Assembly (NCBI RefSeq): GCF_048287415.1
Contig: NZ_JBLWEN010000001.1
Location: forward strand, 88,790 to 152,789
DNA length: 64,000 nt
DNA from: Candidatus Electronema sp. JM
Lineage (GTDB): Bacteria > Desulfobacterota > Desulfobulbia > Desulfobulbales > Desulfobulbaceae
Reading direction: 5' to 3'
Shown here: positions 20,287-50,525 of the stretch, one piece after another
Layout: the number at the start of each line of letters is the position of its first letter
Numbering within the stretch: the first letter of the stretch is position 1
Notes under the pieces: generated by a model
The model's database searches: none
What the model was told of the DNA's origin: nothing
Seen by the model: only the letters and a program-made list of their open reading frames with translations
Translations under genes and position numbers: made by a program

Positions 20287-20376
20287 GTTACGGTCTATTC
20301 AAAATCAATTACAAGGAAAATTTTTATGGTTATTCCGAGCACAACGAGGAATCTTTGCTGCTTCTGAAACATCCAT

Positions 20377-21864: not shown

Positions 21865-22029
21865 GTGTGCTCGTGGTGTATTGCAAGAAACGATGCAGGC
21901 AGGCTGCGGGGACAGTCGCCGCAGCGCCTTTACACATTCGATTCTAAAACTTCCTCATCGCCAACCTACGCTTGGCTGCGCAACTGCTTCGGATAAGGCT
22001 GTATCAACGTTGGCAGGCCAGCTCCGATC

Positions 22030-25300: not shown

Positions 25301-26110
25301 CTCGCCTTCCAGAAAGATCGGCTGCGGATGAATCGGGGTGCGGTTGCGGTTCAGGTGCTCGACATATTCAACCACGCCGCCTTCATAATGAAACACATCC
25401 TCAGCCCCGCTTTGCTCATCCTTCAGGGTGATGTGAACGCCCCGATTGAGAAAAGCCAGCTCGCGCAGCCGGTTGAGGACGATCTCGTATTTGAACACAA
25501 CCGTCTGGGTGAATATCTCCGGGTCTGGCTTGAAAGTAATCGTGGTGCCGGTGTGCTCGCTGGTGCCAACCACCTCCAGCTCGCTGGTCTTTGCGCCGTA
25601 AGAGAAGGTCTGCCGGTAGAGCTTGCCGTTGCGCCGCACCTCAGCGGTGACATGGGTGGAGAGCGCATTGACCACCGACACGCCCACGCCGTGCAATCCG
25701 CCGGAAACTTTATAGGACGAATGATCGAACTTGCCGCCCGCGTGCAAGGTGGTCAGCACCAGCTCAAGAGCGGTCATGTTTTCCGTCGGATGCTTGTCCA
25801 CCGGAATGCCGCGTCCGTTGTCTTCGACCGAGCAGGAACCGTCCTCCAGCAGGATCACCTTAATCTGGTTGCAGTATCCGGCCAGAGCCTCGTCAATCGA
25901 GTTGTCCACCACCTCGTAAATCAGATGATGCAGCCCTTCTTCCGCCGTGTTGCCGATATACATGGACGGACGCTTGCGCACCGCCTCAAGCCCGTCAAGA
26001 ACCTTGATCTGATCCGCCCCGTAGGACGTGTTCTGCTGTTCGCTCACTTGCTTGCCTTCTCTGAAGAATTTATACGGAAAACGGCATGGTTGCGATGCGG
26101 CGCGCCGCAT
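22337..26110 (-). CDS. gyrB: DNA gyrase subunit B carrying an in-frame intein of about 433 aa. The real start is probably near 26035-26050 at [17 protein letters not shown].
   Basis: GHKL ATPase motifs are present ([38 protein letters not shown]). A TOPRIM domain with EGDSAGG is interrupted by [10 protein letters not shown]...GVFVHN. The sequence then resumes [27 protein letters not shown] and continues to the C-terminus ...[11 protein letters not shown]. Confidence 0.95.
23453..24751 (-). mobile_element. Intein inserted in GyrB TOPRIM, between EGDSAGG and SAKQGRD, with an HNH-type endonuclease module
   Basis: The first intein residue is Cys (block [14 protein letters not shown]). The intein ends VHN followed by Ser(+1). 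The internal HNH-like motif is [31 protein letters not shown]. The extein-only length is about 800 aa, normal for GyrB. Confidence 0.8.
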
Positions 26111-33006: not shown

Positions 33007-35025
33007 TTACAGGCCGCGAACTGGCGGCAAGGAAAGGGCAAGCCGGAAGCCCAAGTCGTCGCTGCGGTTGTCCGGCGAGTACCAGTAGCGGAACGCCGCC
33101 CGCACGAACAAGGGTGAGTCGCCCCAGCTACCGCCGCGAAACACGCGGCTCGAGCCTTTCTCAGGGCCAATCGGATTGCCCTTAGGACTGACAGCGTAAT
33201 AACCACTGTTGTACCAATCCGCGCACCACTCCCAGACATTGCCGTGCATGTCGTGAAGGCCCCAAGCGTTGGCCTTCTTTTCACCAACTGGATGGGTTGT
33301 ATTGCCGGAATTTTTGCCGTACCAAGCATAGTCCTGAAGCTGCGCCTCATCATCACCAAAGCACCAAGCCGACTCACTGCCTGCCCGGCAGGCATATTCC
33401 CACTCCGCTTCGGTGGGGAGGCGATAGGTGTGACCTGTTTCCTGACTCAGCCATTGACAGTAGGCAACCGCATCGTCCCAGCTTACATTGATCACCGACC
33501 GCTGCCCTCTGCCCCAGCCCCTGTTTTCTTTACCTGTGGCCTCACAGAAAACATCGTACTCGGCAAAGGTGACTGGATAGCGGCCAATGGCAAAGCTGTC
33601 CAGTTCCACCTCATGCACCGGTCGTGCATCGTCACTGCCATTGCCCTGAATATCTCCCATGCGGAAACGACCGCCGCGTATAAGCATCATCTTTATTCCG
33701 AGTCCACCGCCAAAAGACTCCGGCAAAAGACAAGGTAAGGCAATCTGATCAACGTGCCTGAATATCCCATCAGCAAGATCAACAAAGCGCACGAGCTGAT
33801 CCGTGGCCCGCAGCGGTGTTTGTTCAGCCAACTGCTTCTGCACGATGCCCCAAGCTAAGAGGAACTCCTGCACCGTGTAATGGCTGAAGCGGAAGGCGCG
33901 GTCAGAGTTGCGGTTGAGCAAAGATCGTCCGCCCAGCTCGAACTGCTCCAGCCAGGCTATGTTCGCGTCCGCACGGATGAGCTGCTTCAGCTCATCCTCT
34001 GAGAGTACCCGCGTGCCCTGCCGCTGCATCCGCTCCGCAATCCGCAGGCAGGCCAGAAAGAGTTCCTTGCGCTCAGGCACCTGCTCGCCTTGATGCTGCT
34101 CCCGCAGCTTGCGCACTTCCCGGTCAAGCCATTCCTCCACCGTGTAGGTGTTCCAGTCTTGGCGGCGGCAGTCCTTGGCCAGCAGCTTGTCAATATGCTG
34201 AAGGAGCATGGGCCGCATCCGCAAATCCTGCATGTGCTTGAGCAGACAGTCCGCCTTGGCCCGCTCATCCCTGATCTTCCCAGCCTGAAAGCACAGACGA
34301 TGGTGCCAATGCAAGGGCAGCTTGCGCTCAATGAAGTCCTGCACTTGGGCATCGGTGAAGGGGGAAAGATACAGCACCGGGCAGTGATAGCCGGACAGCA
34401 CCCTGATCTCCGGGCGGCCAAAGCGGTCTGGCTCCATCTCCGGGAAGAACTGCGTCCGGCTGGAGATGAGCACCCGGCGGAAATCCTCGCTGGCGCGCAG
34501 CAGCTCCAGCAGGCGGTCGCGGATGCGCTTCCATGCCTGCGGGTCTTCGTCCAAGGCATCGAGCAGCAGGACGGTCCCGCCCTTGTTCGGCAGAGCCTGC
34601 ACGCGCTCCAAGGTGTCTTTCCCCAGCTTGAACAGGGCGCAGCCATGCCCCTTGGGCCAGAAGCTGGTCAGGTGCATGAGCTTGATCATCAGCAGCAGCG
34701 AGGTCTTGCCCATCCCAGCATCAGAGAGGATGAACATCTGGTGGCGGCCATCCTTCTCCAAAGGCAGACCGCCCTGAAAGAACTCGTTGATCCGCTCAAA
34801 GGCAGGCTGCCGGGCCGCAGAGAGCAGGTCGTCCTGCTGCACATCCGCCGGGTTGCGGTCTTGCAGGAACGGCTCAATGTAGAGGCCGCGCAGGGTTTCA
34901 GGATCAACGAACTCGTCCCGCAGACGGTCAAGCTCCTGCTTCCGCTCGCCGGTCAGTTGCGTGAGCCGCTTCCAAAGATCCTTAATCCACGCTGGCTTGA
35001 CAAAGCTCAGGACTTCCAAGGCCAT
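33007..35025 (-). CDS. STAND NTPase with an N-terminal NACHT-like P-loop domain fused to a C-terminal formylglycine-generating-enzyme (FGE-sulfatase/SUMF1) fold
   Basis: Walker A is LSDAGMGKTSLLLM and Walker B is VLLLDALDED. The C-terminal approximately 250 aa have FGE hallmarks (RGGRFRMGD...RPVHEVELDSFAIGRYPVT..EY, WDDAVAYCQWLS, RLPTEAEWEYACRAG, HGNVWEWC, RGGSW). Confidence 0.8.
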   Translation of the reverse strand: MALEVLSFVKPAWIKDLWKRLTQLTGERKQELDRLRDEFVDPETLRGLYIEPFLQDRNPADVQQDDLLSAARQPAFERINEFFQGGLPLEKDGRHQMFILSDAGMGKTSLLLMIKLMHLTSFWPKGHGCALFKLGKDTLERVQALPNKGGTVLLLDALDEDPQAWKRIRDRLLELLRASEDFRRVLISSRTQFFPEMEPDRFGRPEIRVLSGYHCPVLYLSPFTDAQVQDFIERKLPLHWHHRLCFQAGKIRDERAKADCLLKHMQDLRMRPMLLQHIDKLLAKDCRRQDWNTYTVEEWLDREVRKLREQHQGEQVPERKELFLACLRIAERMQRQGTRVLSEDELKQLIRADANIAWLEQFELGGRSLLNRNSDRAFRFSHYTVQEFLLAWGIVQKQLAEQTPLRATDQLVRFVDLADGIFRHVDQIALPCLLPESFGGGLGIKMMLIRGGRFRMGDIQGNGSDDARPVHEVELDSFAIGRYPVTFAEYDVFCEATGKENRGWGRGQRSVINVSWDDAVAYCQWLSQETGHTYRLPTEAEWEYACRAGSESAWCFGDDEAQLQDYAWYGKNSGNTTHPVGEKKANAWGLHDMHGNVWEWCADWYNSGYYAVSPKGNPIGPEKGSSRVFRGGSWGDSPLFVRAAFRYWYSPDNRSDDLGFRLALSLPPVRGL

Positions 35026-35193: not shown

Positions 35194-38100
35194 ATGAATA
35201 CTACCCAGCCGCCGCCCATCGCCTCCAAGGCTCTTGAAGCCAACTTCCAGCAGACCGCCAGTGCCGTTGCAATTTCTCCCCGCTACGCCCCGCTGCGGGA
35301 GGCCGTGGCCCGCTATCAGGGCTTGTCCGCCCGGCTGGAGCACCTGCTCTACGAAATCAGCCACCCGTTCCGCAACTGGCAGCTCATCATCGCCGAGCTG
35401 CGGCCCTTTGTCCTCAAGAATCTCAATCATTACCTCAGCCATGCGCAGGGGCCGGACTGCTTCGCCCTCTTCAGCTCGATCTTCCTGGACGCGCTGAAGG
35501 ACTCGCGCAAAAACAGCAAGGTCATCGCCCTGACCATGGAGGCCATGCTCGCCTATGCGGACAAAGTCGTCGCCTCGCTCAAGCCGGACATGCTGCCGCT
35601 CTACGGCCCGCAGCTCAACGCTTTTTTCGAGCAGCTCGCCCGCTTGGACGAGATAGACAGCAGCCTGATGGCGCACATGGTGCAGGGCCATCATCCGATG
35701 AAGAAGATGGCGGCCCAGCTCATCAGCCTGAGCCGCAGCGCGGGCGCGGAAACCTTCTCCTGCGCTGCGGCGGCCAAGCTGCTGCGGAAAATCCTCGAAA
35801 TCAACTATGCCTGCTGGCTGGGCGAAGAGGATCCGCAGCCTTGGTTCGAGTCGCAGTGCGGCGGCGGCAGCTGCTGCGGTCAGGCCGGAACCGACTTGGC
35901 GGCGATCTCTCACAGCCGGATGCGCGAGCATCTGACCGCGCTGGAGCAGATCAGCATTGACGAGGATCCGCAGGAGGCCCTCAGCCGCATCTTGGAGCTG
36001 CCCGCGCATATCGACATCGTCCGCCTCTACCGGGAAATCCCCGGCAAATTAGGCGAACATGCTGCGGACACCGACCCGGCGGCGGTGGAGAACCGGAAGC
36101 TCTTCTTCCTCTTCCGCATCATGGAGACCTCCGGCCTCTCGCTCATTCATGAGGAAACCCTGCGCGAGATCAACCGTTCTTTGGTGCAGCTCATCCGCCG
36201 TCAGAGCTTTGACGAGATTGCCGAGTTTTTCACCACCGCCTTTCACTTGCTCAAGGCCAATGTGCGCAAATATCCGCACACTTCGCTGCAATGTATTCAG
36301 GTCATCGGCGGTGAAGTCTTCCAGCGCGGCAACTCGCGTTTAGTTGAAGCCTTCCTCTTCGAGACCGTGCGCTTCGGCTTCCAGCACGCCAATGTCATGG
36401 GCGTGGACGAGGACTGGCAGCCGATCAGCAACCCGGCGCATTTGGCCAACATCCGGGTCTGGCTGAACTTGATCATGCAGGAGCCGAAATGGTGCTCGAC
36501 GCTCTTCTCGGCCCTGATCATCAACCTGCGTCTCTCCGGCACCTGCGTCAAAGACACCGACCTCTTCCAGCGCGACATCACCCAGCTCCTCAATCATCCC
36601 ATCGGCCCGATCTATAACTTGGCCAAGCAGTTCAGCAAGCTGATGCCGGTCTTCTTCAATGAGATCGGCGCGGAAGGCGAGCTGCGCGATGTCTCCACCG
36701 AATTGGATGAACTGCACAAGCGGCACGACGTGCTCATTCATTTTCTCCGCAAGCAGTCGCACGTCGAGTCGTCGAACCTGATTGTCGGCTTCATCCGGGC
36801 CATCTACAGCTTCTGGCTGACCTTGGACAAGAAACCGCTGGCCGCCTATCTGCCGGAAGAAATCCTCAGTCAGGTGGCGAGCAGCGGCCCTTATGTGGAC
36901 GAGCTGCATCTGCTCGCTCAACAGGTGCGCGAGGAATTGGAATACAGCACAGTGGACGAGCTGCTGACCTGGGACGAGGCGGAGCGGAAAGACTGGCTGC
37001 TGCGCCAGAGCGACATTTCCGCTGGCGAGCGCAAACGCTTTGACCTGCTGGTGCGGATGTTCAAGCTGCTCCACCACAAATACAGCTTGGGCATGGATGA
37101 GCTGCGCGGTCAGCTCGAGCACGCGGTGCAGAACGGCTTCCCGGAAATGACCGAGCTGCTGGAGGTTTTGGAGCACGGCGACACCTGGACCTGCTTGGAC
37201 GCAGTGCTGACGCAATTAGAGCAGCTTAAAGAGACCATCCTCAGCGACAAGAAATTTGCGCCGAAGGAGGAAATTTACTACAAGCGGCACATCGCGGTGG
37301 ATATTCCTTCCGTCTATGGCCGCTATTCGGAGCGCAAATTTGACGCGCTCGGCCTGACCTTCCGCTTGGAGAGCCTGGCCAATATTTATTTGGAACGGCT
37401 GAACCGCTCGATCAATCTCGGCTTCATCACCCAAGCCACCTTCATCGGCATCGCCAAAAGCCTCAGCCTCTCTCTCCGCGCCCTGAAGATTGACGGCATC
37501 AGCAGCCGCCGCTTGGACACCTACACCAGCCTGCTCAACTCCTCGATCAGCATCAAACGCTTCACCTACACCCAGCACTTGGACATCTTCCGTGGGTTGT
37601 CAGAAGGGGTGAAGGATGTGATTTATGCCTATTACACCAATATTCATCAGAACAATCTCTCGGTCATCATTCCCCAGATCGGCGGCGAGAATCTGCTGAC
37701 CAAAAACCGGACGCTCTGGGACGAGAAGGACATGTCCTCGACCGTGCACCGCCTTTCCGAGTCCTTCTTCCGCGACCTGATCGCAGCCACCTTCGGCCTC
37801 CAGCATTTGGACAACTTCATCACCCGCATCATCCACACGCTGGAGGCGCAGCGCGACATTCTCGACGAGCAGACCCTCGACCTGCTCATGACCTACAACC
37901 CGGAAATCGCCATCTCCTCGCTCTACAACGAGAATCCGCTCACGCACAACCTGATTCATCTCGGCAACAAGGGCTTCAACCTCATGCTCTTGGCCAACGA
38001 CGGCAAGCCGGTGCCGCCCGCCTTCATCATCACCACTGAAATATTCCGCTGCTGGCAGGCGGTGCAGGGCTTCACCAAGGCGCGGGAGGAGTTTATGCAG

Positions 38101-39444
38101 CGGCTGCACACCTCCATCACCGGCTTGGAGGAGCGCACAGGCCGCCGCTTCGGCTCGCCGGAAAACCCGCTGCTGCTTTCGGTGCGTTCCGGCGCGGCGA
38201 TTTCCATGCCCGGCATGATGACTACGATCCACAACGTCGGCCTGAACGAGGATTTGCTGGAGGAGCTGTGCGTCAAGCACCCGGAGCAGGAGTATTTTCT
38301 CTGGGACACCTACCGCCGCTTCCTGCAATCTTGGGCGATGGGCGAAGGCATGGGCCGCGAGGAGTTCGGCGCGCTGATGAACGCGCACAAGAAACGCTAC
38401 GGCAAGCGGCTGAAACGCGAATTCAGCCCGGCGCAGATGCGCGAGCTGGCTCTTGAATACCGCAACGCCATGCGGCGGCACGGATGCAGCGCGCCGGAAG
38501 ATCCTTGGCTTCAGCTGGTGCGGGCGGTGGAGATGGTGCTGGATTCGTGGAGCACCCATAAAGCCCGCCAGTACCGCCACCTGATGGCCGTCTCCGACGA
38601 CTGGGGCACAGCAGTGATTGTCCAGACGATGGTCTATGGCAACCGCAATCAGCAGTCCGGCAGCGGCGTGCTCTTCACCGCCCATCCCTACCGCAAGGTG
38701 CGGCGGGTCGCGCTCTGGGGCGATTACGCCTCCGGTGATCAGGGCGAGGACATCGTCTCCGGCCTTGTCACCAGCTATCCGATCTCGGTCGAGCAGGCGG
38801 AGCTGGACGGGCGTTCGGTCGAGCAGAGCCTCGAACGCCGCTTCCCGGAGATCTACGAGCAGCTCCTCAGCATCTCCCGCGACTTGGTGTACACTAAAGA
38901 ATGGAACCCGCAGGAGATTGAGTTCACCTTTGAAAGCCCTGACCCGGACGATCTCTACGTGCTCCAGACCCGCGACATGATCACCATCAAGAAGAAGGAG
39001 CATTTCCGGGTCTTCGAGGAAAGCGAGGCGCAGCAGGCGGCGGTGCTCGGCAAGGGCATCGGCGTGAGCGGCTCCGCCATCTCCGGCCTGGCTGTCTTCA
39101 CCGACGAAAACATCCGCCAGCTCCGCCACGAGCAGCCGGACATGCCGCTCATCCTCCTCCGCCAGGACACGGTGCCGGAGGACATCCGGGAAATCTCCAT
39201 GTGCGACGGCCTGCTCACCGCGCGCGGCGGCCAGACCTCGCACGCTTCCGTGGTCGCAACGCGCTTGGAGAAAACCTGTGTGGTCGGCTGCCGCGACTTG
39301 CAGGTCTTCGAGGACAAGGAGCAGGCGGCCATCAACGGCCTTGTGATAAAATTCGGCGACCCGGTCTCCATTGACGGGCGCAGCGGCCTCTTCCTGCGCG
39401 GCATCCATCCGACGCGAGAAGAGGTGCATATTTTGCCGCTGTAG
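35194..39444 (+). CDS. Giant 1416-aa protein. An unknown approximately 900-aa N-terminal region is followed by PPDK-type ATP-grasp (PPDK_N) and PEP-utilizing phosphohistidine (swivel) domains. It lacks a PEP/pyruvate-binding TIM barrel.
   Basis: The C-terminal third reads LGNKGFNLMLLANDGKPVPPAFIITTEIF...NPLLLSVRSGAAISMPGMM...HLMAVSDDWGTAVIVQTMVYGN...RGGQTSHASVVATRLEKTCVVGC, the conserved His motif. The ORF ends 60 aa later. The N-terminal 900 aa have no motif I recognise. Confidence 0.75.
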   Translation: MNTTQPPPIASKALEANFQQTASAVAISPRYAPLREAVARYQGLSARLEHLLYEISHPFRNWQLIIAELRPFVLKNLNHYLSHAQGPDCFALFSSIFLDALKDSRKNSKVIALTMEAMLAYADKVVASLKPDMLPLYGPQLNAFFEQLARLDEIDSSLMAHMVQGHHPMKKMAAQLISLSRSAGAETFSCAAAAKLLRKILEINYACWLGEEDPQPWFESQCGGGSCCGQAGTDLAAISHSRMREHLTALEQISIDEDPQEALSRILELPAHIDIVRLYREIPGKLGEHAADTDPAAVENRKLFFLFRIMETSGLSLIHEETLREINRSLVQLIRRQSFDEIAEFFTTAFHLLKANVRKYPHTSLQCIQVIGGEVFQRGNSRLVEAFLFETVRFGFQHANVMGVDEDWQPISNPAHLANIRVWLNLIMQEPKWCSTLFSALIINLRLSGTCVKDTDLFQRDITQLLNHPIGPIYNLAKQFSKLMPVFFNEIGAEGELRDVSTELDELHKRHDVLIHFLRKQSHVESSNLIVGFIRAIYSFWLTLDKKPLAAYLPEEILSQVASSGPYVDELHLLAQQVREELEYSTVDELLTWDEAERKDWLLRQSDISAGERKRFDLLVRMFKLLHHKYSLGMDELRGQLEHAVQNGFPEMTELLEVLEHGDTWTCLDAVLTQLEQLKETILSDKKFAPKEEIYYKRHIAVDIPSVYGRYSERKFDALGLTFRLESLANIYLERLNRSINLGFITQATFIGIAKSLSLSLRALKIDGISSRRLDTYTSLLNSSISIKRFTYTQHLDIFRGLSEGVKDVIYAYYTNIHQNNLSVIIPQIGGENLLTKNRTLWDEKDMSSTVHRLSESFFRDLIAATFGLQHLDNFITRIIHTLEAQRDILDEQTLDLLMTYNPEIAISSLYNENPLTHNLIHLGNKGFNLMLLANDGKPVPPAFIITTEIFRCWQAVQGFTKAREEFMQRLHTSITGLEERTGRRFGSPENPLLLSVRSGAAISMPGMMTTIHNVGLNEDLLEELCVKHPEQEYFLWDTYRRFLQSWAMGEGMGREEFGALMNAHKKRYGKRLKREFSPAQMRELALEYRNAMRRHGCSAPEDPWLQLVRAVEMVLDSWSTHKARQYRHLMAVSDDWGTAVIVQTMVYGNRNQQSGSGVLFTAHPYRKVRRVALWGDYASGDQGEDIVSGLVTSYPISVEQAELDGRSVEQSLERRFPEIYEQLLSISRDLVYTKEWNPQEIEFTFESPDPDDLYVLQTRDMITIKKKEHFRVFEESEAQQAAVLGKGIGVSGSAISGLAVFTDENIRQLRHEQPDMPLILLRQDTVPEDIREISMCDGLLTARGGQTSHASVVATRLEKTCVVGCRDLQVFEDKEQAAINGLVIKFGDPVSIDGRSGLFLRGIHPTREEVHILPL

Positions 39445-39495
39445 CTGATGGCGAAAAAGGGGCGAAGAAAATCGCCCCAGTAGAATCAGCGCAAA

Positions 39496-40212
39496 CTATT
39501 GAGCAGTGCCTTTTCGAGGAATCTTCAGCCGTAGTCTTGGATAAATTAAGTTTGGGTTATCCATCAACTGAGGATGCTTCTCTTTATTTGCCAAAATAAT
39601 TTCTTGAACAGAAACGTGGTGTCGTTCAGCGATCTTTCCTAAACAATCGCCTTCCATTACTTGATAGCAGTCTTTGCCTAAATAGCAATCAACAGTCTCC
39701 TTTAGTTCTGTGATATTTTCTGGATTGGCATAGAATATGTAGACTGGCGCGAAAATCAAAGAAACAGCGTACCATCTTTTTTTACGAAATATCCATCTAA
39801 TGTTTATTGTTTTTTCATAAATTTTTTTTATTTTGCTTTTGCAATTTTCAATAAAAATTATGCCGCCGCTCAAGATGCCATCTATTTTATAGACAAAAAC
39901 AGGCAGATTCGACCTGTATTTCCGTATCAATCTATTTCCATATCCTTCCATGTAAAGAAGGATAAAAAACAATGTAAAAACACAGAATGCTATTATTTTA
40001 AATAAAATCATTAAAATCCAAGGAAGCACCCGGAGCGCAAGCCAAGGAATCAACAACATCAATACGAAAAGAATAACAAACGGGAGTGCAACGGATAGCC
40101 ATTCTGATCTTGATGCAGAAAATAGCTGTTCGGAAATAACTTGGAAGAAAAGAATACCTTTTATAAGGTATTCATCTTGAATTTGGTTTAACAGGCTATT
40201 CAGGCGTTCCAT
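39496..40212 (-). CDS. Membrane protein with a C-terminal LysM domain (last gene of the AT-rich operon)
   Basis: It has 2-3 TM helices (LPFVILFVLMLLIPWLALRVLPWILMILFKIIAFCVFTLFFILL). The C-terminal LysM is CYQVMEGDCLGKIAERHHVSVQEIILANK...NLIYPRLRLKIP. The gene is visibly AT-rich. Its start overlaps the upstream gene by 17 nt. Confidence 0.7.
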   Translation of the reverse strand: MERLNSLLNQIQDEYLIKGILFFQVISEQLFSASRSEWLSVALPFVILFVLMLLIPWLALRVLPWILMILFKIIAFCVFTLFFILLYMEGYGNRLIRKYRSNLPVFVYKIDGILSGGIIFIENCKSKIKKIYEKTINIRWIFRKKRWYAVSLIFAPVYIFYANPENITELKETVDCYLGKDCYQVMEGDCLGKIAERHHVSVQEIILANKEKHPQLMDNPNLIYPRLRLKIPRKGTAQ

Positions 40213-41437
40213 CTCTCCTTATTGATTCAGGGTGTATATTAATATCCGCACTTTCTTCTTGTTGATCCTGTTGTTTTTCCTCGCTGGATGACTTTTCTCC
40301 AATAAGAGCAGCTCCTTGGTCTGACAATCTTCCTACCTTCTGCACAAGTGATTTGGCAATATCCTCAAACCTCCATTCGCCGATCACACCTTTTTCAACG
40401 AAAATTTTTAATATTTCTATACAAGTTGAATTCTCTTCAACACGCATCTTCTCTTCCCTGTCTATTTGCTGTTTGACAAATGAAAGCAATTCTCTGTCGT
40501 TTGGATTTTCTGGATTGCATATTGCAATAATTCCGCGCCAATTACCAATTGACAGGAGCGGCGACAGCAGCGTTTCCCTATTTAGCCTATGATTGAATTC
40601 AATTCGCTGCATTTCAAGCTGCTTCTCAAATTCAATCTGCTTGATTCGCATCTCTGCTTCCATTTTCTTCAATTCAAAATTCATACTTTGTTCCAGCAGG
40701 ATAGTTTGCCTATAAAGCTCAATTTTCCTATCCTTAAATAGCAGCTCCTGTCTCATGGACTCTATCTCCATTTTCTGCTGCATCAGCCGTTTTTCCATTT
40801 CAGCCTTTATGGCATCTACCGAGAATTGCTCCTGAATGATTTTTTCTTGATTTTTTGCATCTATCGTCCCCAGCTTTCCATCAATCAGCCTTTTGCTGAT
40901 GGATTCATGTGGCGACAGCGTAACGAATGGAGGACGGCTTAACTTGAATCCTAAGTCATGAATTTTATTGCCATATATCAATTGACTTTTAAGCTCCTCA
41001 ACAACAGCTCGTTCTGCCTGCGATGCCTGCTCGTTCGCATAGTTTCGACAGATAGGCCGGATTATATCAAGAGCTGACTCTTTTAAAAAATCCCGAATGT
41101 CTCTCCTTCCATTCTGCACAATAAGCAATGGATTATCTATGCAATAAGTCAATGTGACTTCAGCTTGAAAAGGGAGTTCGTCAGCACAAGGAATACTTAC
41201 TGAAAAAAGAATTGAATATTCCGACAGATCAACTTCATAATACACCTTATATGTGCCGATGAGAATGTCGCCAGCTGTCGGCCCGCCATTTTTTCCTGCG
41301 TAAACAACAATTGGCGGACAATTTTCTCCAAGAAAGACATGTGCCTTTCCGAATTTCGGCGATTCAGGCCGTTTGAAGGAAAATTTTTCCAGTTTTCTCT
41401 CAATAACAAGCGGATATTCTTCAGGAGCGAAATCCAT
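40196..41437 (-). CDS. SPFH/band-7 (flotillin-like) domain protein with a long coiled coil and a C-terminal unknown domain
   Basis: The segment AEVTLTYCIDNPLLIVQNGRRDIRDFLKESALDIIRPICRNYANEQASQAERAVVEELKSQLIYGNKIHDLGFKLSRPPFVTLSP matches the SPFH-core consensus pattern. It is followed by an approximately 100-aa heptad-rich E/K/Q coiled coil. No TM segment is present. Confidence 0.5.
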   Translation of the reverse strand: MDFAPEEYPLVIERKLEKFSFKRPESPKFGKAHVFLGENCPPIVVYAGKNGGPTAGDILIGTYKVYYEVDLSEYSILFSVSIPCADELPFQAEVTLTYCIDNPLLIVQNGRRDIRDFLKESALDIIRPICRNYANEQASQAERAVVEELKSQLIYGNKIHDLGFKLSRPPFVTLSPHESISKRLIDGKLGTIDAKNQEKIIQEQFSVDAIKAEMEKRLMQQKMEIESMRQELLFKDRKIELYRQTILLEQSMNFELKKMEAEMRIKQIEFEKQLEMQRIEFNHRLNRETLLSPLLSIGNWRGIIAICNPENPNDRELLSFVKQQIDREEKMRVEENSTCIEILKIFVEKGVIGEWRFEDIAKSLVQKVGRLSDQGAALIGEKSSSEEKQQDQQEESADINIHPESIRRDGTPE

Positions 41438-42929
41438 TTTTTATCTCTGTTAAAATTTTCAAGGAAGTTTCAGATTCATCAGACCATTTTTCTAAGTACG
41501 CGCAAATGCAATTGCGATTTCTTGGAATACGAGAGACATCATATAAAATTCTTGCGAGAGTTTTCCAGAATTTTCCGTGCATGTCAATATGTTTCAGCCA
41601 CTTGAATATTTCAGTAAGAGCAAGTCGTCTGATTGGCTCCGAATCAAAAACTCTTTGCAGCAGACGGACAATGAGTTCTTCCGTCTTTGCTTTCTCTTCC
41701 GCAAGAATAAGAAGGCTCGGATGCTGGGAGCCGTCTTTAATTGACCAAGAAATACGCATCAAATCTGAAAATATAAGCAGAGACAAGCGATGAAGCGAGG
41801 ATTTTTTCTCCTGCCGTCCCCATTGGTTAAGAGATTGCAGAACGAGAACCGACGAACTTGATTGCTTGAAGAGCCATTTGACAGCATAAGCTATATCTTT
41901 AAAGAGTATTCCGTTGCCTGAATTTGCAATATTTCTTAAATCTTCGAGAGCTTGTTCAGGAAAATGCTGACCAAGACAAGAGCAATATGCGAAAATTGCA
42001 GTTTGATTCAATTTGACTGAATTTTTCAGACTACTCCAATAATGAATACTATTTAAAGAAAGTTGAGCAACATCTTCGTTTTCATCATATAAAACAACTG
42101 CAAGCGCAAATCCAACTAATTTTTGGATAGATTGACTTTCTGATTTTGCCCAAGGCAACAATATTTGGTCACGAACCGGTTGAAATTCATACCGTGCCAG
42201 CCGACCCGCTGTTGCTGCTGCTCTCAGTCTGATTTGAGAATTTTCATGTTTCCCTAACTCAAACAACCATTGCAGCATTGCTTTTGCATAAACATCACGT
42301 TCATGCCAGATGTGATGCAAAACAGTTTCTGGAGTTTCTTGGTCATCAAATGCAACTTTCTTGACAGGACTTTTGCCGCATTCGGTAACTTCGCAATCAT
42401 TTTCAAGATGCGCTGATATGTCTTTAAGCCACTGACTCCTTTTCTTTTCCTCTATCTCTTCGTCCAGATTAGAAGTATTTTCTATCTCCGCTTCCTTCCG
42501 CGACTGCAACCGAATGATATTTTGCAAATACTGGCTCGCCTCATCAACTAATCGGTAATTGCAGCCATTAAACACTGACAGTGAAATGATAAAACTGCGC
42601 CTGCTTTTGCAGCTATCAAATATAGATTCGATAGAAGAATCAAACGATTTATCTTTGTCCGCTTGCGTTTTTTGGCCAGAATAATTGCTCTGATCTCCGG
42701 CGATTATCGAGCCAGTATTATTTATATTGCTGTTTGATGCATGAAACCCTCCAGTGTAATTATAATTTTTAATTATTTGAATAATAGTTCTGCTGTTCTC
42801 TGTAAAATCATCTGTTTCGTTCGTATGTATTTTATTGTATTTTATAGATTCTTCAACAGATTTTATACCGTCATCTTCAGAAAGATGATCAATTTTTTCA
42901 AAGAAATTTTCTTCGTCGCCTTGTTCCAT
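41421..42929 (-). CDS. Hypothetical 502-aa protein with a C-terminal HEAT/ARM-like helical repeat region and an acidic N-terminus
   Basis: It is tightly coupled to its neighbours (a 14-nt gap upstream and a 17-nt overlap downstream). It carries no family motif I recognise. The C-terminal half is predicted all-alpha with periodic L/A/W patterns. Confidence 0.45.
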   Translation of the reverse strand: MEQGDEENFFEKIDHLSEDDGIKSVEESIKYNKIHTNETDDFTENSRTIIQIIKNYNYTGGFHASNSNINNTGSIIAGDQSNYSGQKTQADKDKSFDSSIESIFDSCKSRRSFIISLSVFNGCNYRLVDEASQYLQNIIRLQSRKEAEIENTSNLDEEIEEKKRSQWLKDISAHLENDCEVTECGKSPVKKVAFDDQETPETVLHHIWHERDVYAKAMLQWLFELGKHENSQIRLRAAATAGRLARYEFQPVRDQILLPWAKSESQSIQKLVGFALAVVLYDENEDVAQLSLNSIHYWSSLKNSVKLNQTAIFAYCSCLGQHFPEQALEDLRNIANSGNGILFKDIAYAVKWLFKQSSSSVLVLQSLNQWGRQEKKSSLHRLSLLIFSDLMRISWSIKDGSQHPSLLILAEEKAKTEELIVRLLQRVFDSEPIRRLALTEIFKWLKHIDMHGKFWKTLARILYDVSRIPRNRNCICAYLEKWSDESETSLKILTEIKNGFRS

Positions 42930-42942
42930 TTTTGATCTCTCT

Positions 42943-43353
42943 TCATTTTTTATTTATTTGATCCCTGCCTATAAAAGTCCCTTCATTGACAAAGGTGGAA
43001 TTTTTGATAAGCACACCTCCTGTTTGCACAATTCTTTCTACCTTTACCCCATAAAGCCGTGCGATATCTAACGCTAATTCCTGATCTTCTTGGAGCAGCT
43101 TTTTCACTTGAAAGTGCAGAGTCTTCTGCGCATCTTCTTCTGAAGGATCCCGTACCACATCTTCTGCCGCCATTTTCACACCTTCAACTCTTGCAGAAGA
43201 ACGGGAAGAAATTTTTGTCCAGACAGCCTTGGCCGTCTCCCATCCGTCAGAACCTATTTTTTCTAACGCTCCTCCCAGTATCTGTCCCCCACCGCTCAAC
43301 AGATAAGGAAGTACTGGCACTAAAGAAGAAACAACCATTTCAGCAAGTTCCAT
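42943..43353 (-). CDS. Hypothetical 136-aa protein, first gene of the AT-rich operon
   Basis: The ORF has a Gly-rich N-terminus (LLSGGGQILGGALEKIGSDGWE). It is followed within 14 nt by the next gene. No homology is recognised. Confidence 0.4.
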   Translation of the reverse strand: MELAEMVVSSLVPVLPYLLSGGGQILGGALEKIGSDGWETAKAVWTKISSRSSARVEGVKMAAEDVVRDPSEEDAQKTLHFQVKKLLQEDQELALDIARLYGVKVERIVQTGGVLIKNSTFVNEGTFIGRDQINKK

Positions 43354-43534
43354 AGTTTTTTCTCAATGTCTCAAGTTGTTCCAGCAGCCAGAGCAATTCA
43401 GGCTTGACAAGGGCAGGCTGCCGATGAATACTGCGCTGCTCAGTATGTGATCACCTGCAATAAATTTCAAGTATTTTAAAAGGGCTTTTGAGCTGCCTTG
43501 CTGCCTGTCTCGGCGGTGCAACAGCGGAGGCCGT

Positions 43535-43592
43535 CACATCGTTTACATTGAAAAAACAAGGCTACAGGTCACAGCTTGGATTGAGCATTTAC
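43535..43592. promoter_or_regulatory. Conserved ~55-bp boundary element, copy A: ATTGAAAAAACAAGGCTACAGGTCACAGCTTGGATTGAGCATTTAC
   Basis: It is near-identical to 48998..49056 (ATTGAAAAAGCAATGTTATAGATCACAACTTGGATTGAGTGTATTG). Both copies lie 3' of a GC-rich minus-strand gene and 5' of an AT-rich minus-strand cassette. Confidence 0.6.
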
Positions 43593-43653
43593 GTCGAGGA
43601 AGTTTTCAAATTATCTAAAAACTGAAATACTACAGCTTGCATGTCCGGCAGCT

Positions 43654-47340: not shown

Positions 47341-48318
47341 TCAGTCCTTGCGCCTGCTGATGCTGACGCGTTGCAGCAGGCGGTTCTGGTCTTTGGCACC
47401 GTCATAGGCAATGACAAGCTGCCAGCTGTCCTGCCGCTCCTCAAGCACAGCCAAGCCCTCAGCCTTGGAGTCCTCGTCCGGCGGCGCAATTTCACCAAGC
47501 AGACACAGCCTGCCCATATCCTCCGGCCTGCGGTCTTTGCCCGGCACCGTGTCTTTGCCGTTCCAATGATAAATTTGATACGAATCTGTCCCGTCGCCCA
47601 CCGGCCCGGCCAAGATCAAAAAACCGTCAGCAACAGTGGCGAGATCGCGGATACCCCGCCCGCCGAGCCGGACATACAGCAGCTCGTATTGTTCCGGCTC
47701 CTCCCAACGCAGCCGCAGCACCGGGACGTAATTGTCCCGGAAGACCGGTCCCCGGAAACCGACATGCAGCCAGCCGTCCTTGACAGCAAGGCCTTCAATG
47801 TCAACGCCGTTCTCTTTGCTGGGAATGCCGCAGAAGGCTTTCAAGGCCGGATCATTATAAATGATGCCGCGCAGACTGATTCTGTCCTTCGCCAGCTCCT
47901 TGCCGTCTTCATTCAGCCGCAGGCGGAAGAGCCAGTCCCGGCTGACCTCGTCTTCAATTTTGTCCTGATGAAAAGTCTCCCGGTTTTCCTTCCAGTTGCG
48001 TTCTTTCTTGATCTTCTTCCGTTTGGAGGAGTGCGAGCCGATGACGTAAGCAAGATCGCCTTCAACGCAGATGCCTTCAATATCCAGCTCCTTGCCTTGC
48101 GTTACGAGGATACTGTGCGCCGCCACGCAGCTGCCGTCGCTGTTTATCGTAAGAAACTGAATGCGATTCTCGTCTCCGTCATGGCCTGATGCCTCGTCTG
48201 CGCCGATGATTAAAAAGGAGCGGAACTTTGCGACCGCGCTCACATTCTCAAGGGCCAAAATTTCGCCTGATATGCTTATAAAGCAAGCAGGTGCCATATC
48301 CTCATTTCTCCATAACAT
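47341..48318 (-). CDS. Hypothetical protein of 325 aa
   Basis: This is an ORF with no motif I can name. Its GC level is close to the background. Confidence 0.4.
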   Translation of the reverse strand: MLWRNEDMAPACFISISGEILALENVSAVAKFRSFLIIGADEASGHDGDENRIQFLTINSDGSCVAAHSILVTQGKELDIEGICVEGDLAYVIGSHSSKRKKIKKERNWKENRETFHQDKIEDEVSRDWLFRLRLNEDGKELAKDRISLRGIIYNDPALKAFCGIPSKENGVDIEGLAVKDGWLHVGFRGPVFRDNYVPVLRLRWEEPEQYELLYVRLGGRGIRDLATVADGFLILAGPVGDGTDSYQIYHWNGKDTVPGKDRRPEDMGRLCLLGEIAPPDEDSKAEGLAVLEERQDSWQLVIAYDGAKDQNRLLQRVSISRRKD

Positions 48319-48967
48319 TATATTTCTTAATATGCCTGAAAGCGGTCAACGCATCAAGGATGAAATCAAGCGATCCGGCTGGGCCATTGTAATGATAGAC
48401 ATTCTTCTTAGCCATGACCAATTCTCCGATATGCACTGGTGAAAAATCAGGATCAGCGCATGAAAGCTGGAACCATTCTCCTTCTTTTTTTTGAAACTTC
48501 CCCTGCATGGCTTCGATATCATAATTTGCCACCTGGTCATCTGTCGCCCGCCACATATTGTAGCTGCCATGCCCGACAAGCACGATGCTTTGATATTTTG
48601 GATCAGTGAGAACGTTCATGAAATCCGCTTTGGTAGCCGCAAAAAAATAGTCTATTTTTTCTCCTCTTGCATTAAAATACCACGTCCATGCCGGGTAGCT
48701 TCCCAAAAAGCCGAACGGCGGCGCCCAATAATCATAATCTGAAAAGGCATGTGCGGACAGCAGAATTGCGGCGTTCTTATCTGTTTTTGTAAGTAAATTT
48801 GAAGTGAATGCAATCGCCGCTATTGGTATATAAACTGCGATAAGAATAACAACATATTTTATCAGAGGCTTAATGCTGATAGTTCCAAATTTTTTCTTAA
48901 ATATAACGTGATATAAGCTCATGGGTGTCGTGCATGTTGAAATGATATAGCTTTTTCTTATGATCAA
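48302..48967 (-). CDS. Hypothetical membrane-anchored protein of 221 aa; an AT-rich single-gene cassette
   Basis: It has an N-terminal TM (VVILIAVYIPIAAIAF). The gene is visibly AT-rich. The conserved 55-bp element lies about 40-100 bp upstream on its strand. Confidence 0.4.
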   Translation of the reverse strand: MIIRKSYIISTCTTPMSLYHVIFKKKFGTISIKPLIKYVVILIAVYIPIAAIAFTSNLLTKTDKNAAILLSAHAFSDYDYWAPPFGFLGSYPAWTWYFNARGEKIDYFFAATKADFMNVLTDPKYQSIVLVGHGSYNMWRATDDQVANYDIEAMQGKFQKKEGEWFQLSCADPDFSPVHIGELVMAKKNVYHYNGPAGSLDFILDALTAFRHIKKYNVMEK

Positions 48968-48997
48968 AACTCTCAGCGTATATCCATGTCGTCACCT

Positions 48998-49056
48998 GAC
49001 ATGGCTTTAAATTGAAAAAGCAATGTTATAGATCACAACTTGGATTGAGTGTATTG
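48998..49056. promoter_or_regulatory. Conserved ~55-bp boundary element, copy B
   Basis: See copy A. It overlaps the last approximately 10 codons of the histidine kinase ORF (...KDNTLNPSCDL*). Confidence 0.6.
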
Positions 49057-50525
49057 TCCTTCATTTTTTTCACCGGCAGGCTGATGAAAAACGCCGCGCC
49101 CTGCCCCTGCGCACTCTCAACCGTGATTGCGCCACCGTGCTTGGTGATGATCTCGCGGGTCACAGCCAAACCAAGGCCGCTGCCCTTGCCAACTTCCTTG
49201 GTGGTGTAGAAAGGATCAAAGATTTTCTCCATATCCACTGCCGCGATGCCGGGGCCGTTGTCGCGCACTTCAATACGGAGCAGCCCTTCCTCTGCCGCGA
49301 TGCCTGCTTTGAGCAAAATCTGCCCTGCGCCGTCCAAGGCTTGCGCTGCATTGCGGAGAATATTGATCAGAGCCTGCTGGAGCTGCCGCTTGTCAGCGCA
49401 GAAGAGGCCGTCCTGCGTGATTTCAGTGCGGAACTCAAGCGTGTCCGGGATGTCGCCTTTGACCAATTTGCAGGTCTCGCGGATGAACGCGCCCAGCTCC
49501 AGCTCTTTGGGCCGCACTTCGCGGTCATGGGCGAACTCCAGCAGAGAGCGGATGATGTTCCGCGCCCGGTCTGTTTCCTCGTCTATCTGCGCGGCCATTT
49601 CAAGCAGAAAGTCGCTGTCCGGCAGGTTTGCCTCCTGCAATTCTTCCAGCAGTATCTGCGCCGAGGTGCTGGCGTTGGAAAGCGGGTTGTTCAGCTCATG
49701 CGCCACGCCCGCCACCAAAGTGCCGACCGCCGCCATCTTTTCGCTCTGGACGAGCTGCTTCTCGCGCTTGTCTAAAATCTCCATCATGTGACAAATCGCC
49801 TTGCTCACCGCCTGGATTTCCACCGGATCAGCAGCATCTTCCCAGCAGGTGAAATTGCCTGCGGCGATGCTGTGGGTGTAATCCACAATATGCTGAAGCG
49901 GCTGCACAATCAAATTGCGCATCTGCCTGCCAAGAAGCAGGGCCATGCCAGCCACAGCAGCGACAAGGAGCAGTCCGGCAACTTTCAGGCGGGCCAGCTT
50001 CCGGTCTATCGCCTCGCGGATGTTCCGGTTCATCGCCCCAGACAGATTCACCAGCTCCTTGCCTGCGCTGCGGATGGCCTCCTCATTCAGATGACGGCGA
50101 TTCGTCTGAAAGAAGGCGAATTCCGCATCCATGAGCTGGCGATAGCGGAACAGCTCGTCCTGCAAGCGCACCTTAGCCTTGCGGTCTTCCCCAACCTGCT
50201 TTTCCCGAAGCAGCATGAAGGCATTCTCAATCTGCGCTTGGTTCTCAAGGAACTCCTGCTGCTCGCGGTACAGGAGCCAGTTCTTCTCATAACGGCGGAT
50301 TTCCAGCACGGTGTCAGTCAGGGCGGCGACAGACTCCAAGGTGGAGACGCGCTGGCGGATGTCGGCAAGGCCCACAGCCACCATGAGGGTGATCGTGGCG
50401 GCCAGCAGCACCATCAGGCAGTAGCCAAGCTGGATGCGCCGGACAAGGCTGTTCGGTAGACGGCTGATAATGGATTGCATAATGCAATAGTGCTCTCTGA
50501 AATGCAACAGCCCTTGCAGGCCCAA
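49026..50525 (-). CDS. Sensor histidine kinase (two TM segments, HAMP, HisKA, HATPase_c)
   Basis: The H-box is VAHELNNPLSNASTSAQIL and the G-boxes are DNGPGIAAVDMEKIFDPFYTTK...GSGLGLAV. It is a paralog of the kinase at 58536. Confidence 0.85.
   Translation of the reverse strand: MGLQGLLHFREHYCIMQSIISRLPNSLVRRIQLGYCLMVLLAATITLMVAVGLADIRQRVSTLESVAALTDTVLEIRRYEKNWLLYREQQEFLENQAQIENAFMLLREKQVGEDRKAKVRLQDELFRYRQLMDAEFAFFQTNRRHLNEEAIRSAGKELVNLSGAMNRNIREAIDRKLARLKVAGLLLVAAVAGMALLLGRQMRNLIVQPLQHIVDYTHSIAAGNFTCWEDAADPVEIQAVSKAICHMMEILDKREKQLVQSEKMAAVGTLVAGVAHELNNPLSNASTSAQILLEELQEANLPDSDFLLEMAAQIDEETDRARNIIRSLLEFAHDREVRPKELELGAFIRETCKLVKGDIPDTLEFRTEITQDGLFCADKRQLQQALINILRNAAQALDGAGQILLKAGIAAEEGLLRIEVRDNGPGIAAVDMEKIFDPFYTTKEVGKGSGLGLAVTREIITKHGGAITVESAQGQGAAFFISLPVKKMKDNTLNPSCDL

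Follow-up and report, generated by a model that had tools for sequence, protein, structure and literature searches.

In HET-S/NWD2, in the Bell/BASS-NLR gene pairs and in Bab/Agp, the N-termini of the receptors cluster and nucleate a cross-beta fold, which templates a motif on the effector and releases a membrane-targeting helical domain. Coupling of this type has so far been found in fungi, in Actinobacteria and Cyanobacteria by bioinformatics and heterologous prion assays, and in one abortive infection (Abi) system of E. coli. The Bell/BASS-NLR gene pairs, where BASS stands for bacterial amyloid signalling sequences, were described in filamentous bacteria (Dyrka et al. 2020, 10.1101/2020.01.06.895854). 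In Bab/Agp of E. coli, amyloid templating drives abortive infection with a receptor that has no STAND NTPase (Ibarlosa et al. 2024, 10.1101/2024.11.07.622273), so amyloid templating can work without a NOD module. Here we analyze a low-GC cassette of four genes in the freshwater cable bacterium Candidatus Electronema sp. JM, located in a stretch of 64,000 nucleotides (contig NZ_JBLWEN010000001.1, positions 88,790 to 152,789 of the forward strand), which is referred to as the window. All four open reading frames (ORFs) lie on the minus strand and encode, in the order of the operon, a small protein (gene 1), a protein with an ARM/HEAT-like solenoid (gene 2, the ARM protein), an SPFH protein (gene 3) and a membrane protein with a C-terminal LysM domain (gene 4). 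By analogy with the systems above, we consider it somewhat better than an even chance that the cassette is an NTPase-less variant of an amyloid-motif-coupled, NLR-like cell-death or immunity system, in which cell death would be templated by the motif. The original prediction, made from the same DNA, regarded the gene combination as one that could not be assigned to a named system. The shared motif, the gene order conserved in cyanobacteria, the kinship with nSTAND3-ARM proteins and the dispensable LysM domain described below say otherwise. Remote homology, which that prediction had proposed as its own check, places the cassette in a recognizable kind of system, NLR-type and coupled by an amyloid-type motif, but not in a characterized operon.

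Motif, candidate effector and candidate receptor

The small protein (136 aa, 42943-43353, minus strand) and the ARM protein (502 aa, 41421-42929, minus strand) carry the same type of motif, as identified by motif alignment and reciprocal hidden Markov models (HMMs). On the effector side the motif comprises ~22 aa at residues ~112-133, GGVLIKNSTFVNEGTFIGRDQI (42955..43020, minus strand), and the C-terminal end of the small protein reads GGVLIKNSTFVNEGTFIGRDQ. On the receptor side it occupies residues ~59-82, GGFHASNSNINNTGSIIAGDQSNY (42684..42755, minus strand), within the segment GGFHASNSNINNTGSIIAGDQ that follows an acidic disordered tail. An alignment of 14 motifs from 7 loci gives the consensus GG[VI]HIxxSxxhxNxGxhhGxxQ, and the motif is kept on both partners in all copies. 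The specificity of the motif HMMs was assessed on 20,560 six-frame peptides, amounting to 2.0 million residues, that were taken from the window and all loci. The model of the small-protein side retrieves first its own family and next the ARM proteins of almost all cassette loci (E 1.5e-4 to 0.9), the first unrelated peptide appearing at E 7.5. Conversely, the model of the receptor side retrieves all small proteins at E 5e-5 to 0.02, with noise starting from E 1.3. The motif is enriched in G (3.3-fold), N (3.1-fold), I (1.8-fold) and V (1.45-fold), depleted in K (0.36-fold) and L (0.14-fold), free of P and neutral in Q. Enrichment in G, N, Q, V and I together with depletion of K, P and L is the bias of BASS (10.1101/2020.01.06.895854, section 9), and the composition of our motif is of this type, Q excepted.

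The layout of the two genes is also that of a BASS pair, since they are adjacent and collinear, 13 nt apart, with the motif at the C-terminus of the candidate effector and in the N-terminal region of the candidate receptor. The motifs of the two partners co-vary. Among five independent lineages the true within-locus pairing is the best of 120 permutations, and among six lineages 2/720 permutations reach the score of the true pairing; in three STAND-type loci each motif pair is maximal on the diagonal. On the analogy with the published pairs, we infer that this is a putative amyloid signalling motif that may form amyloid. Assignment to BASS2, BASS4 or BASS7 was considered from the likeness to 'VHGGVHI', 'VGGNhxhGxhxQ' and 'QGINIKGG..NTFNF', respectively, and was dropped since register and order do not fit.

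The small protein was recovered as the predicted 136-aa ORF. It starts with a moderately hydrophobic, glycine-rich helix, followed by an all-helical domain of ~100 aa and, at the C-terminus, by the shared motif. Its AlphaFold2 (AF2) model, based on a shallow 4-sequence alignment and with a predicted local distance difference test (pLDDT) score of 55, contains three helices and short C-terminal strands, which are placed with low confidence at residues 113-117 and 126-128. The orthologues in cyanobacterial cassettes are 145-152 aa long and 40-44% identical, and the one in a GC-rich STAND-type operon is 29% identical. The small protein has no match in Pfam, NCBIfam, PADLOC, PHROGs or PDB sequences, and a Pfam search of the family at E up to 10 returned nothing. 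A profile of the helical domain from 6 sequences matched in PDB designed helical repeats that share a helix-capping pattern and are no real relatives, while Foldseek with the low-confidence model gave generic helical bundles at E >=0.2. By analogy, the 136-aa protein is predicted to be the effector, or executioner, of the system.

The ARM protein begins with the acidic disordered tail, which is followed by the shared motif and a helical linker, and ends in an ARM/HEAT-like solenoid. In its AF2 model residues ~210-500 form an all-alpha solenoid of ~20 helices with pLDDT of 75-95. The PDB matches found by Foldseek are all ARM/HEAT proteins but weak (E~1e-3, TM-score 0.2-0.3), the top ones being importin-alpha, AP-1/AP-2 beta, SF3B1 and designed armadillo proteins. 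The protein has no Pfam match, neither to HEAT nor to an NTPase, and no Walker A motif is present in its sequence. A profile of 22 ARM proteins was compared with 1.84 billion representative proteins (clusters at 50% identity) at E up to 1e-3. The search recovered 1150 representatives, mostly of 700-790 aa, 720 of them at <1e-10 and 169 at <1e-30. Among the 149 best matches, 109 have a length of 650 aa or more and carry the ARM domain C-terminally. When 60 of the relatives were searched against Pfam, nSTAND3 (PF20720, 'Novel STAND NTPase 3') was found in 28/60, HEAT_2 in 9/60 and TIR in 1/60. In these relatives an acidic tail precedes 'YIDxRSGGxYFxGxxxhxGDVVGxxQ', clearly the same type of motif, which was found in 31 of the 109 long relatives (>=650 aa) at a median position of 66. 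Residues 100-498 of the 502-aa protein align to residues 319-722 of a 726-aa nSTAND3 relative (E 3e-54 in a small database), and ~17 residues lie between the motif and the region aligned to the part after the NTPase. This spacing and the lack of a Walker A motif indicate that the STAND module is cleanly absent. Sequence comparison thus identifies the 502-aa protein as an NTPase-less member of an NLR-like nSTAND3-ARM family, and by analogy it is predicted to be the receptor or sensor. The NTPase-less architecture spans the distinct 50%-identity clusters P0034, P0036, P0037, P0038, P0043, P0059, P0061 and P0062. In cyanobacteria the ARM protein is either fused (~550 aa) or split into an N-terminal part of 177-196 aa and a 355-aa ARM part. 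The split genes were seen at L085 9465-11068, L086 9408-11071 and L093 1478-3081, where the junction is a 2-nt gap or a 4-nt overlap and the small piece has the motif.

The cassette resembles the Bell/BASS pairs in many respects. Both have adjacent collinear genes, tightly spaced or overlapping, the one encoding an all-helical protein of ~100 aa with a C-terminal G/N/V/I motif of ~25 aa, the other a receptor with the motif towards its N-terminus and a repeat sensor domain at its C-terminus. Partner motif types co-vary in both, the hosts are multicellular or filamentous, and relatives exist with caspase-like or CHAT effectors that carry the same tag; caspase-like and CHAT effectors with C-terminal BASS motifs have been reported (10.1101/2020.01.06.895854). 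The cassette differs from these pairs in that its receptor has ARM/HEAT repeats and neither NB-ARC nor NACHT, its relatives using nSTAND3, in that it includes two additional conserved genes, for the SPFH and the LysM-type membrane proteins, and in that its helical domain has no detectable homology to Bell. The host differs as well: it is a cable bacterium of deltaproteobacterial type, and Bell/BASS pairs are reported to be rare in this group.

Bab/Agp shares with the cassette a small helical effector (109 aa in Bab/Agp) that starts with a hydrophobic helix and ends in an amyloid-type motif, next to a large receptor with the motif at the N-terminus, repeat domains and no STAND NTPase. The few published BASS11 positions (I-G-S-V ... 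D-N) can be aligned to 'IGGVxI......DN' of the cassette, a comparison of residue positions only. Unlike the cassette, Bab/Agp has no SPFH or LysM partners and resides in prophage defence hotspots, and its function has been established experimentally, whereas the cassette is known from its sequence. The STAND or NLR-like conflict systems (Kaur, Burroughs, Iyer, Aravind 2020/2021; PMC7159879, PMC8195603) include the nSTAND3 and HEAT/ARM family and form operons with caspase, CHAT, TIR and TRADD-N neighbours that are enriched in filamentous bacteria. The window protein differs from them by the missing NTPase, and the coupling in the cassette is by a beta-type motif rather than by helical Effector-Associated Domains (EADs), Death-like or TRADD-N adaptors. 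In the papers of this group Band7-like domains are listed among the scaffolding modules, in vWA-MoxR systems only (2020 paper PMC7159879), and an operon of effector, nSTAND3-ARM, SPFH and three-transmembrane (3TM) protein with or without TPR or LysM is not described in PMC7159879 or PMC8195603.

The operon family and its SPFH and membrane proteins

The operons of the long relatives show what may vary and what is kept. In L099 a Peptidase_C14 caspase ending in '...IDNRSGGVYFGNGSVKITGDIVGGNQSK' precedes an nSTAND3-ARM protein with 'IDSRSGGAYFSDKVDIVGDVVGGDQ' and an SPFH homologue, inside which the contig ends. In L102/L103 a TRADD-N protein and a CHAT protease ending in '...IDSRSGGNFFEGTVNISGGEIIGRNK' precede a STAND-ARM protein with 'IDSRSGGNYFAGNVNNEGNITGRNY', an SPFH gene and a TM-TPR protein, which is a homologue of gene 4 that has no LysM. 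In L100/L101, which have a GC of 0.66, a 135-aa homologue of the small protein ending in '...IDQRSGGNYVVGTSVQVGDMIAGD' is followed by a STAND-ARM protein with 'VDRRSGGNYIYAHQVTVLGDMIGRD', a Band_7 protein and a 220-aa TM protein. The SPFH genes after the nSTAND3-ARM genes in L099, L100 and L102 are homologous to that of the window. These alignments indicate that the effector is the variable position of the operon family, and that the conserved core consists of the receptor and the SPFH protein, present in every locus, and the 3TM protein, present in every locus that extends that far; TPR and LysM appear to be optional periplasmic appendages. The family layout is then, judging from the compared loci, a variable effector ending in the motif, a receptor with the motif that usually has nSTAND3 and always ARM/HEAT, an SPFH protein and a 3TM protein with optional TPR-LysM. 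In this large family of ~1150 representative clusters (50% identity), the NLR-like protein is accompanied by SPFH in every sampled locus, and by the 3TM protein where the locus reaches it.

The family occurs, in the sequences collected, mainly in filamentous or multicellular bacteria and appears to be so far undescribed; we did not find the operon in the literature on amyloid signalling, BASS, SPFH/Band-7, nSTAND, Trypco2 and LysM. None of the four window proteins matches a model of PADLOC-DB v2.0.0 at E up to 1, a check that the original prediction had suggested, and scans of these proteins with PADLOC, NCBIfam and PHROGs gave LysM-level matches only. Eight proteins of STAND-type operons gave one P-loop-level match in PADLOC, PDC-S73, and the NCBIfam scan of eight proteins of related operons gave nothing useful. 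Neither PADLOC nor the current models of bacterial NLR immunity include the SPFH and 3TM components.

Several genes adjoin these operons. In L102 (4857-7959) a DUF1822/TRADD-like_N protein precedes the CHAT effector, and a PNP_UDP-SEFIR-TIR protein 5 kb upstream points to a conflict-system cluster. In one cyanobacteria-like lineage, Trypco2 (PF19631) and a 96-aa coiled-coil gene are located directly upstream of the cassette (L087 7813-8493, also L088-L090). Trypco2 was rejected as a part of the cassette, being absent from the other copies, and the two genes are probably a separate neighbouring conflict module.

The SPFH protein (gene 3, 413 aa, 40196-41437, minus strand) matches Pfam Band_7/SPFH PF01145 at residues 57-193 (29.0 bits against a cut-off of 23.6, E 1.3e-6). 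A coiled coil follows at residues ~195-290, expanded relative to the cyanobacterial orthologues by two insertions (~39 and ~27 aa), and the C-terminal helical domain is conserved. The cyanobacterial SPFH protein at the same position has ~336 aa and is 32% identical to that of the window. No membrane anchor was found at the hydropathy threshold in the window protein or in one cyanobacterial orthologue, and among PDB sequences the protein has no relative. Its order of a Band_7 domain followed by a coiled coil is that of the superfamily of stomatin, prohibitin, flotillin and HflK/C, whose members form ring or cage oligomers on membranes. It differs from these scaffolds in that it lacks an N-terminal anchor or hairpin, is not accompanied by NfeD or FtsH, has no close relative of solved structure and holds a fixed place in an NLR-like operon. 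An operon of the NfeD-SPFH or HflK/C-FtsH type was considered and dropped, as no such partners are present. In plants, HIR (SPFH) proteins associate with NLRs. In Okeania KiyG1 the SPFH gene is in pieces of 173 aa and 99 aa (L086 11086-12008), and the fourth protein there has no LysM end.

The membrane protein (gene 4, TM-LysM protein, 238 aa, 39496-40212, minus strand) is the only one of the four with TM segments by hydropathy. Hydropathy and charge counts place a TM hairpin at residues ~38-88, a basic loop at 89-146 (15 K/R) and a third hydrophobic segment at ~147-161. From the positive-inside rule we infer that the loop 89-146 would be cytoplasmic and the LysM domain periplasmic. Pfam LysM PF01476 matches residues 183-232 (28.5 bits against a cut-off of 20.9), and this domain is 47-49% identical to cyanobacterial LysM domains. 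The TM module has homologues in the N-terminal module of the cyanobacterial TM-TPR-LysM proteins, in which TPR repeats are inserted between the TM module and LysM, and in that of the TM-TPR protein of L102. These homologies indicate that the three-TM module is the conserved part of gene 4 and that LysM is an optional appendage. A sporulation or endolysin LysM protein was considered and dropped, with the LysM domain itself as the sole match. The original prediction had described gene 1 as a small protein, gene 2 as HEAT-like, gene 3 as an SPFH core with a coiled coil of about 100 aa and gene 4 as a multi-TM protein ending in LysM. The 136-aa ORF, the solenoid model with its weak ARM/HEAT matches, the Band_7 match above the cut-off, a coiled-coil stretch of ~95 aa visible in the sequence, the hydropathy segments and the LysM match above the cut-off agree with these descriptions.

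Origin of the cassette and weighing of its function

The cassette stands out by its composition. In 500-nt windows GC is 0.61-0.64 up to 39499 (0.64 at 39000-39499), 0.33-0.41 across 39500-43250 and again 0.54-0.57 from 43500. The four ORFs together have a GC of 0.388, compared with 0.583 in the remainder of the window, and the GC at third codon positions (GC3) of the four genes is 0.33-0.38, whereas the PPDK-like gene on one side has 0.84 and the sugar transferase gene on the other 0.73. Neighbouring ORFs are separated by one 13-nt gap and two 17-nt overlaps. Nucleotide homology with Electronema-like loci (L001, L097, L098) extends from 39477 to 43516-43528, with none beyond, and defines the island as a unit from window position 39477 to ~43528. 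With the PPDK-like protein as query, the locus was fetched from 80 species representatives of the Desulfobulbales, including up to 10 kb of flanking sequence, and none of the four cassette proteins is encoded there. At the closest locus (L005, PPDK-like protein 87% identical) and in Ca. Electronema sp. KV (L083, 83%), unrelated genes follow the PPDK-like gene; at another close locus (L006, 85%) almost no sequence is available downstream. The cassette is restricted to a handful of Electronema-like assemblies, whose copies are 76-93% identical at the amino acid level and as AT-rich as that of the window, and to more distant cyanobacterial-type loci; in GCA_052785055.1 it adjoins the same PPDK-like gene. 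The four ORFs are all intact in at least four Electronema-like assemblies. Ratios of nonsynonymous to synonymous substitution (dN/dS) against the Electronema orthologues are 0.20-0.56 for all four genes (0.31-0.56 for the small protein), showing that they are maintained as coding genes under purifying selection.

Homologues of the 502-aa protein with 41-52% identity are found in Microcoleus, Okeania and cyanobacteria-like metagenome contigs, and a metagenome scan added six loci. In every cyanobacterial-type locus fetched the gene order is identical, small protein, ARM protein, SPFH protein and membrane protein. The cyanobacterial cassettes have a GC of 0.365-0.41, close to the 0.388 in Electronema and at or a few points below the remainder of their own loci (0.37-0.46), so that a low-GC, cyanobacterium-like donor is the simplest reading; with only 40-50% identity, the donor is not among the sampled species. 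The block is a horizontally acquired island, given its foreign composition, its patchy presence among relatives and its homologues in a distant lineage. The original prediction had seen an AT-rich, horizontally acquired block with four tightly packed minus-strand genes; the sharp low-GC island (0.39 against 0.58), the ORFs recovered exactly at the predicted positions and the absence from 80 related loci, the closest ones included, bear it out. By their likeness to cyanobacteria, the composition and gene order of the cassette document a transfer of genes between multicellular bacteria that are far apart in phylogeny. The island shows no hallmarks of mobility: the window has no tRNA, direct or inverted repeats do not flank the island, and the block encodes no integrase. 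A phage- or plasmid-borne module was considered and dropped, as no relative of the ARM protein was found among viral contigs, phage records and plasmid records. An exact-sequence look-up of the window SPFH protein returned no record, and word-index homology searches with the SPFH and small proteins returned near-identical Electronema sequences only.

On our preferred reading, the ARM protein would be the sensor. Triggering would cluster several ARM proteins, whose N-terminal motifs would fold into a cross-beta nucleus, and this nucleus would template the identical-type C-terminal motif of the 136-aa protein. The freed helical domain would then act, most plausibly on the cytoplasmic membrane, and the cell would be killed or arrested. 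The SPFH protein may serve as an oligomeric scaffold at the membrane, assembled on the 3TM-LysM protein, which would tether it to the inner membrane and the peptidoglycan. Because the receptor has no NTPase, this scaffold would be the likeliest stand-in for NTPase-driven receptor oligomerization; localization, sensing of the envelope state or restraint of the effector are alternative roles. The attack on the membrane, the kind of trigger (phage, damage or non-self) and the parts that SPFH and LysM would play are all drawn from analogy. If the reading is true, amyloid-motif coupling of effector and receptor extends to cable bacteria, and the cassette would be the second natural case, after Bab/Agp, of a motif receptor that works without a STAND NTPase, which would provide a handle on motif nucleation. 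Cable bacteria form centimetre-long filaments and have not yet been grown in pure culture. A transferable suicide or defence module would bear on how such a filament copes with infected or damaged cells. We further speculate, with low confidence, that a cage of SPFH and 3TM-LysM proteins, anchored to membrane and peptidoglycan, is the oligomerization platform, possibly also an envelope-integrity sensor, for the NTPase-less, NLR-derived receptor. Envelope damage or phage entry would cluster the ARM proteins and nucleate the cross-beta fold, the small protein would disrupt the membrane, and the cell would be sacrificed for the filament. Filamentous cyanobacteria and cable bacteria, two unrelated multicellular lineages, would have exchanged the module, and the family would be a new, widespread class of NLRs with an obligatory flotillin-like partner, similar to the plant HIR-NLR association.

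A number of observations weigh against a templating system. The 502-aa receptor is without the NTPase that normally drives oligomerization, and the idea that SPFH replaces it is weakened by the presence of SPFH also in the NTPase-containing versions. Within the NTPase-less subgroup the motif pairs are no more alike within than between loci, so the co-variation signal comes mainly from deep subfamily splits and the STAND-type loci. The receptor motif is not at the extreme N-terminus but is preceded by ~58 acidic residues. The shared motif has no match among the examples of BASS1-10 listed in Supplementary Table 2 of Dyrka et al., and its relation to BASS11 is a lead only, coming from few published residue positions. 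The N-terminal domain of the small protein has no detectable similarity in sequence, or in fold by its low-confidence model, to Bell, Bab or HeLo, and its N-terminal helix is below the hydropathy threshold for a TM segment. Finally, no match in PADLOC or PHROGs and no phage or plasmid copy backs an anti-phage role.

The same operon family, with the same horizontal origin, may use the motif as a constitutive tag for hetero-association instead of a switchable amyloid, an alternative that we regard as unlikely. The beta-strands of the partners would zip together, as a rung of a beta-solenoid or by strand addition, the effector would be permanently tethered, and activation would come from a conformational change or from proteolysis. 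The motif is indeed short and occurs once per protein, that of the receptor is internal after an acidic tail, the protease effectors of related operons (caspase, CHAT) could act by cleavage, and adaptor coupling of effectors to STAND or vWA cores, Effector-Associated Domains included, is documented in multicellular bacteria (PMC7159879, PMC8195603). However, the known EADs are helical domains and not G/N-rich beta motifs, and composition, length, position, collinear adjacency and co-variation of the motif fit the published definition of an amyloid signalling motif (10.1101/2020.01.06.895854). Caspase-like and CHAT proteins that end in a BASS motif have also been reported (10.1101/2020.01.06.895854).

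Two further explanations do without a death or defence function. The cassette could be a module for envelope or membrane organization in filamentous bacteria, an SPFH scaffold on a peptidoglycan-binding membrane protein with two accessory proteins, that serves maintenance of septum or wall or the response to membrane stress. SPFH and LysM are the sole recognizable domains in the cassette genes of the window, no defence-system model matches them, the hosts are filamentous (cable bacteria, Microcoleus, Okeania), sugar and glycosyl transferases neighbour the cassette in the window, and SPFH proteins are generally implicated in the organization of membrane microdomains (PMC13086221). We nevertheless think an envelope role quite improbable, since in the homologous operons a caspase, a CHAT protease and once a TIR domain take the place of the effector and the receptor contains a STAND NTPase, a combination by which systems of regulated cell death or immunity are typically recognized. 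The sporadic, compositionally foreign cassette, absent from most relatives, is also a poor fit to a core envelope role, LysM and TPR are dispensable in relatives, and the SPFH protein itself is not anchored in the membrane. The other explanation, which we hold to be very improbable, is decay: the cassette would be what remains of an nSTAND3 system that lost its NTPase on or before transfer and would now be non-functional cargo in Electronema. It could account for a receptor without the NTPase domain seen in most relatives, and it recalls the receptor gene split into 177-aa and 355-aa parts in some cyanobacteria and the SPFH gene in two pieces in Okeania. The split forms, however, retain translationally coupled junctions, and decay is hard to reconcile with four ORFs intact in at least four assemblies at the dN/dS given above, with a motif conserved on both partners, and with an NTPase-less architecture kept at 40-50% identity across cyanobacteria and cable bacteria in several distinct 50%-identity clusters. 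An amyloid-motif-coupled cell-death or immunity system is the reading that we favour, and the original prediction, with its suggestion of a defence or envelope-stress cassette, probably pointed in the right direction.

Boundaries, neighbouring genes and other features of the window

The unit defined by nucleotide homology includes 43354..43528 (minus strand), a 5' leader or promoter region that moves with the cassette in L001, L097 and L098. A sigma-70-like site lies at 43470..43442 (minus strand); promoter-like sites in the region are no commoner than in shuffled sequences. At the other end, 18 nt past the stop of gene 4, a terminator-like hairpin, GGGGCGA...TCGCCCC followed by a T run (39459..39478, minus strand), sits where the LysM and PPDK-like genes converge. 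Compared with shuffles, the region has no significant excess of terminator-like sites, and the hairpin is therefore only a consensus match. An Rfam scan of the window gave no match.

The PPDK-like gene (35194-39444, plus strand) encodes 1416 aa with the Pfam domains PPDK_N and PEP-utilizers, and on the opposite side a Bac_transf sugar transferase (Pfam; minus strand) has its 3' end at 43654. The original prediction, which wedged the cassette between the 3' ends of these two genes, was right about both end positions. The sugar transferase, however, lies upstream on the strand of the cassette, so that its 3' end faces the promoter side and not the 3' end of the cassette. In the PPDK-like protein the PPDK_N and PEP-utilizers domains are confined to the last ~450 residues, with no Pfam match in the N-terminal part of ~960 aa, and the full-length protein is kept at 57-87% identity in at least 80 Desulfobulbales species. 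In GCA_052785055.1 the last ~970 nt of this gene are present twice (L097 7601-8570 and L002 1978-2947), 94.6% identical and in the same orientation, and bracket a PIN-domain gene and the cassette if the two contigs abut. The duplication looks like a scar and hints, by its sequence, at recombination or integration at the 3' end of the PPDK-like gene. The window has a single copy of this 3' end and neither a PIN nor an SbcD gene.

Other features lie farther from the cassette. The gyrB gene (22337-26110, minus strand) encodes 1257 aa, with an intein (Pfam Intein_splicing, residues 473-886) between DNA_gyraseB and Toprim. A 672-aa protein (33007-35025, minus strand) has a formylglycine-generating-enzyme-like domain (FGE-sulfatase) in its C-terminal 220 residues and no Pfam match in its N-terminal 440 residues; domains of this type are diversifying sensors in conflict systems of multicellular bacteria (PMC10907252). 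A third AT-rich patch, at ~48000-49250 (GC 0.41-0.47), contains a 221-aa ORF (48302-48967, minus strand) without a Pfam match, located between a DUF3616 gene and a histidine kinase gene. The second AT-rich island of the window, at ~18000-21900 (GC 0.47-0.51 in 2-kb bins), carries two adjoining PDDEXK_2 'transposase-like' nuclease genes (18579-19523 and 19405-20286, both on the minus strand) and the gene of a 495-aa TPR protein (20377-21864, minus strand), which is 64% identical to a gene between SbcC and SbcD in the sister-genome locus L097.

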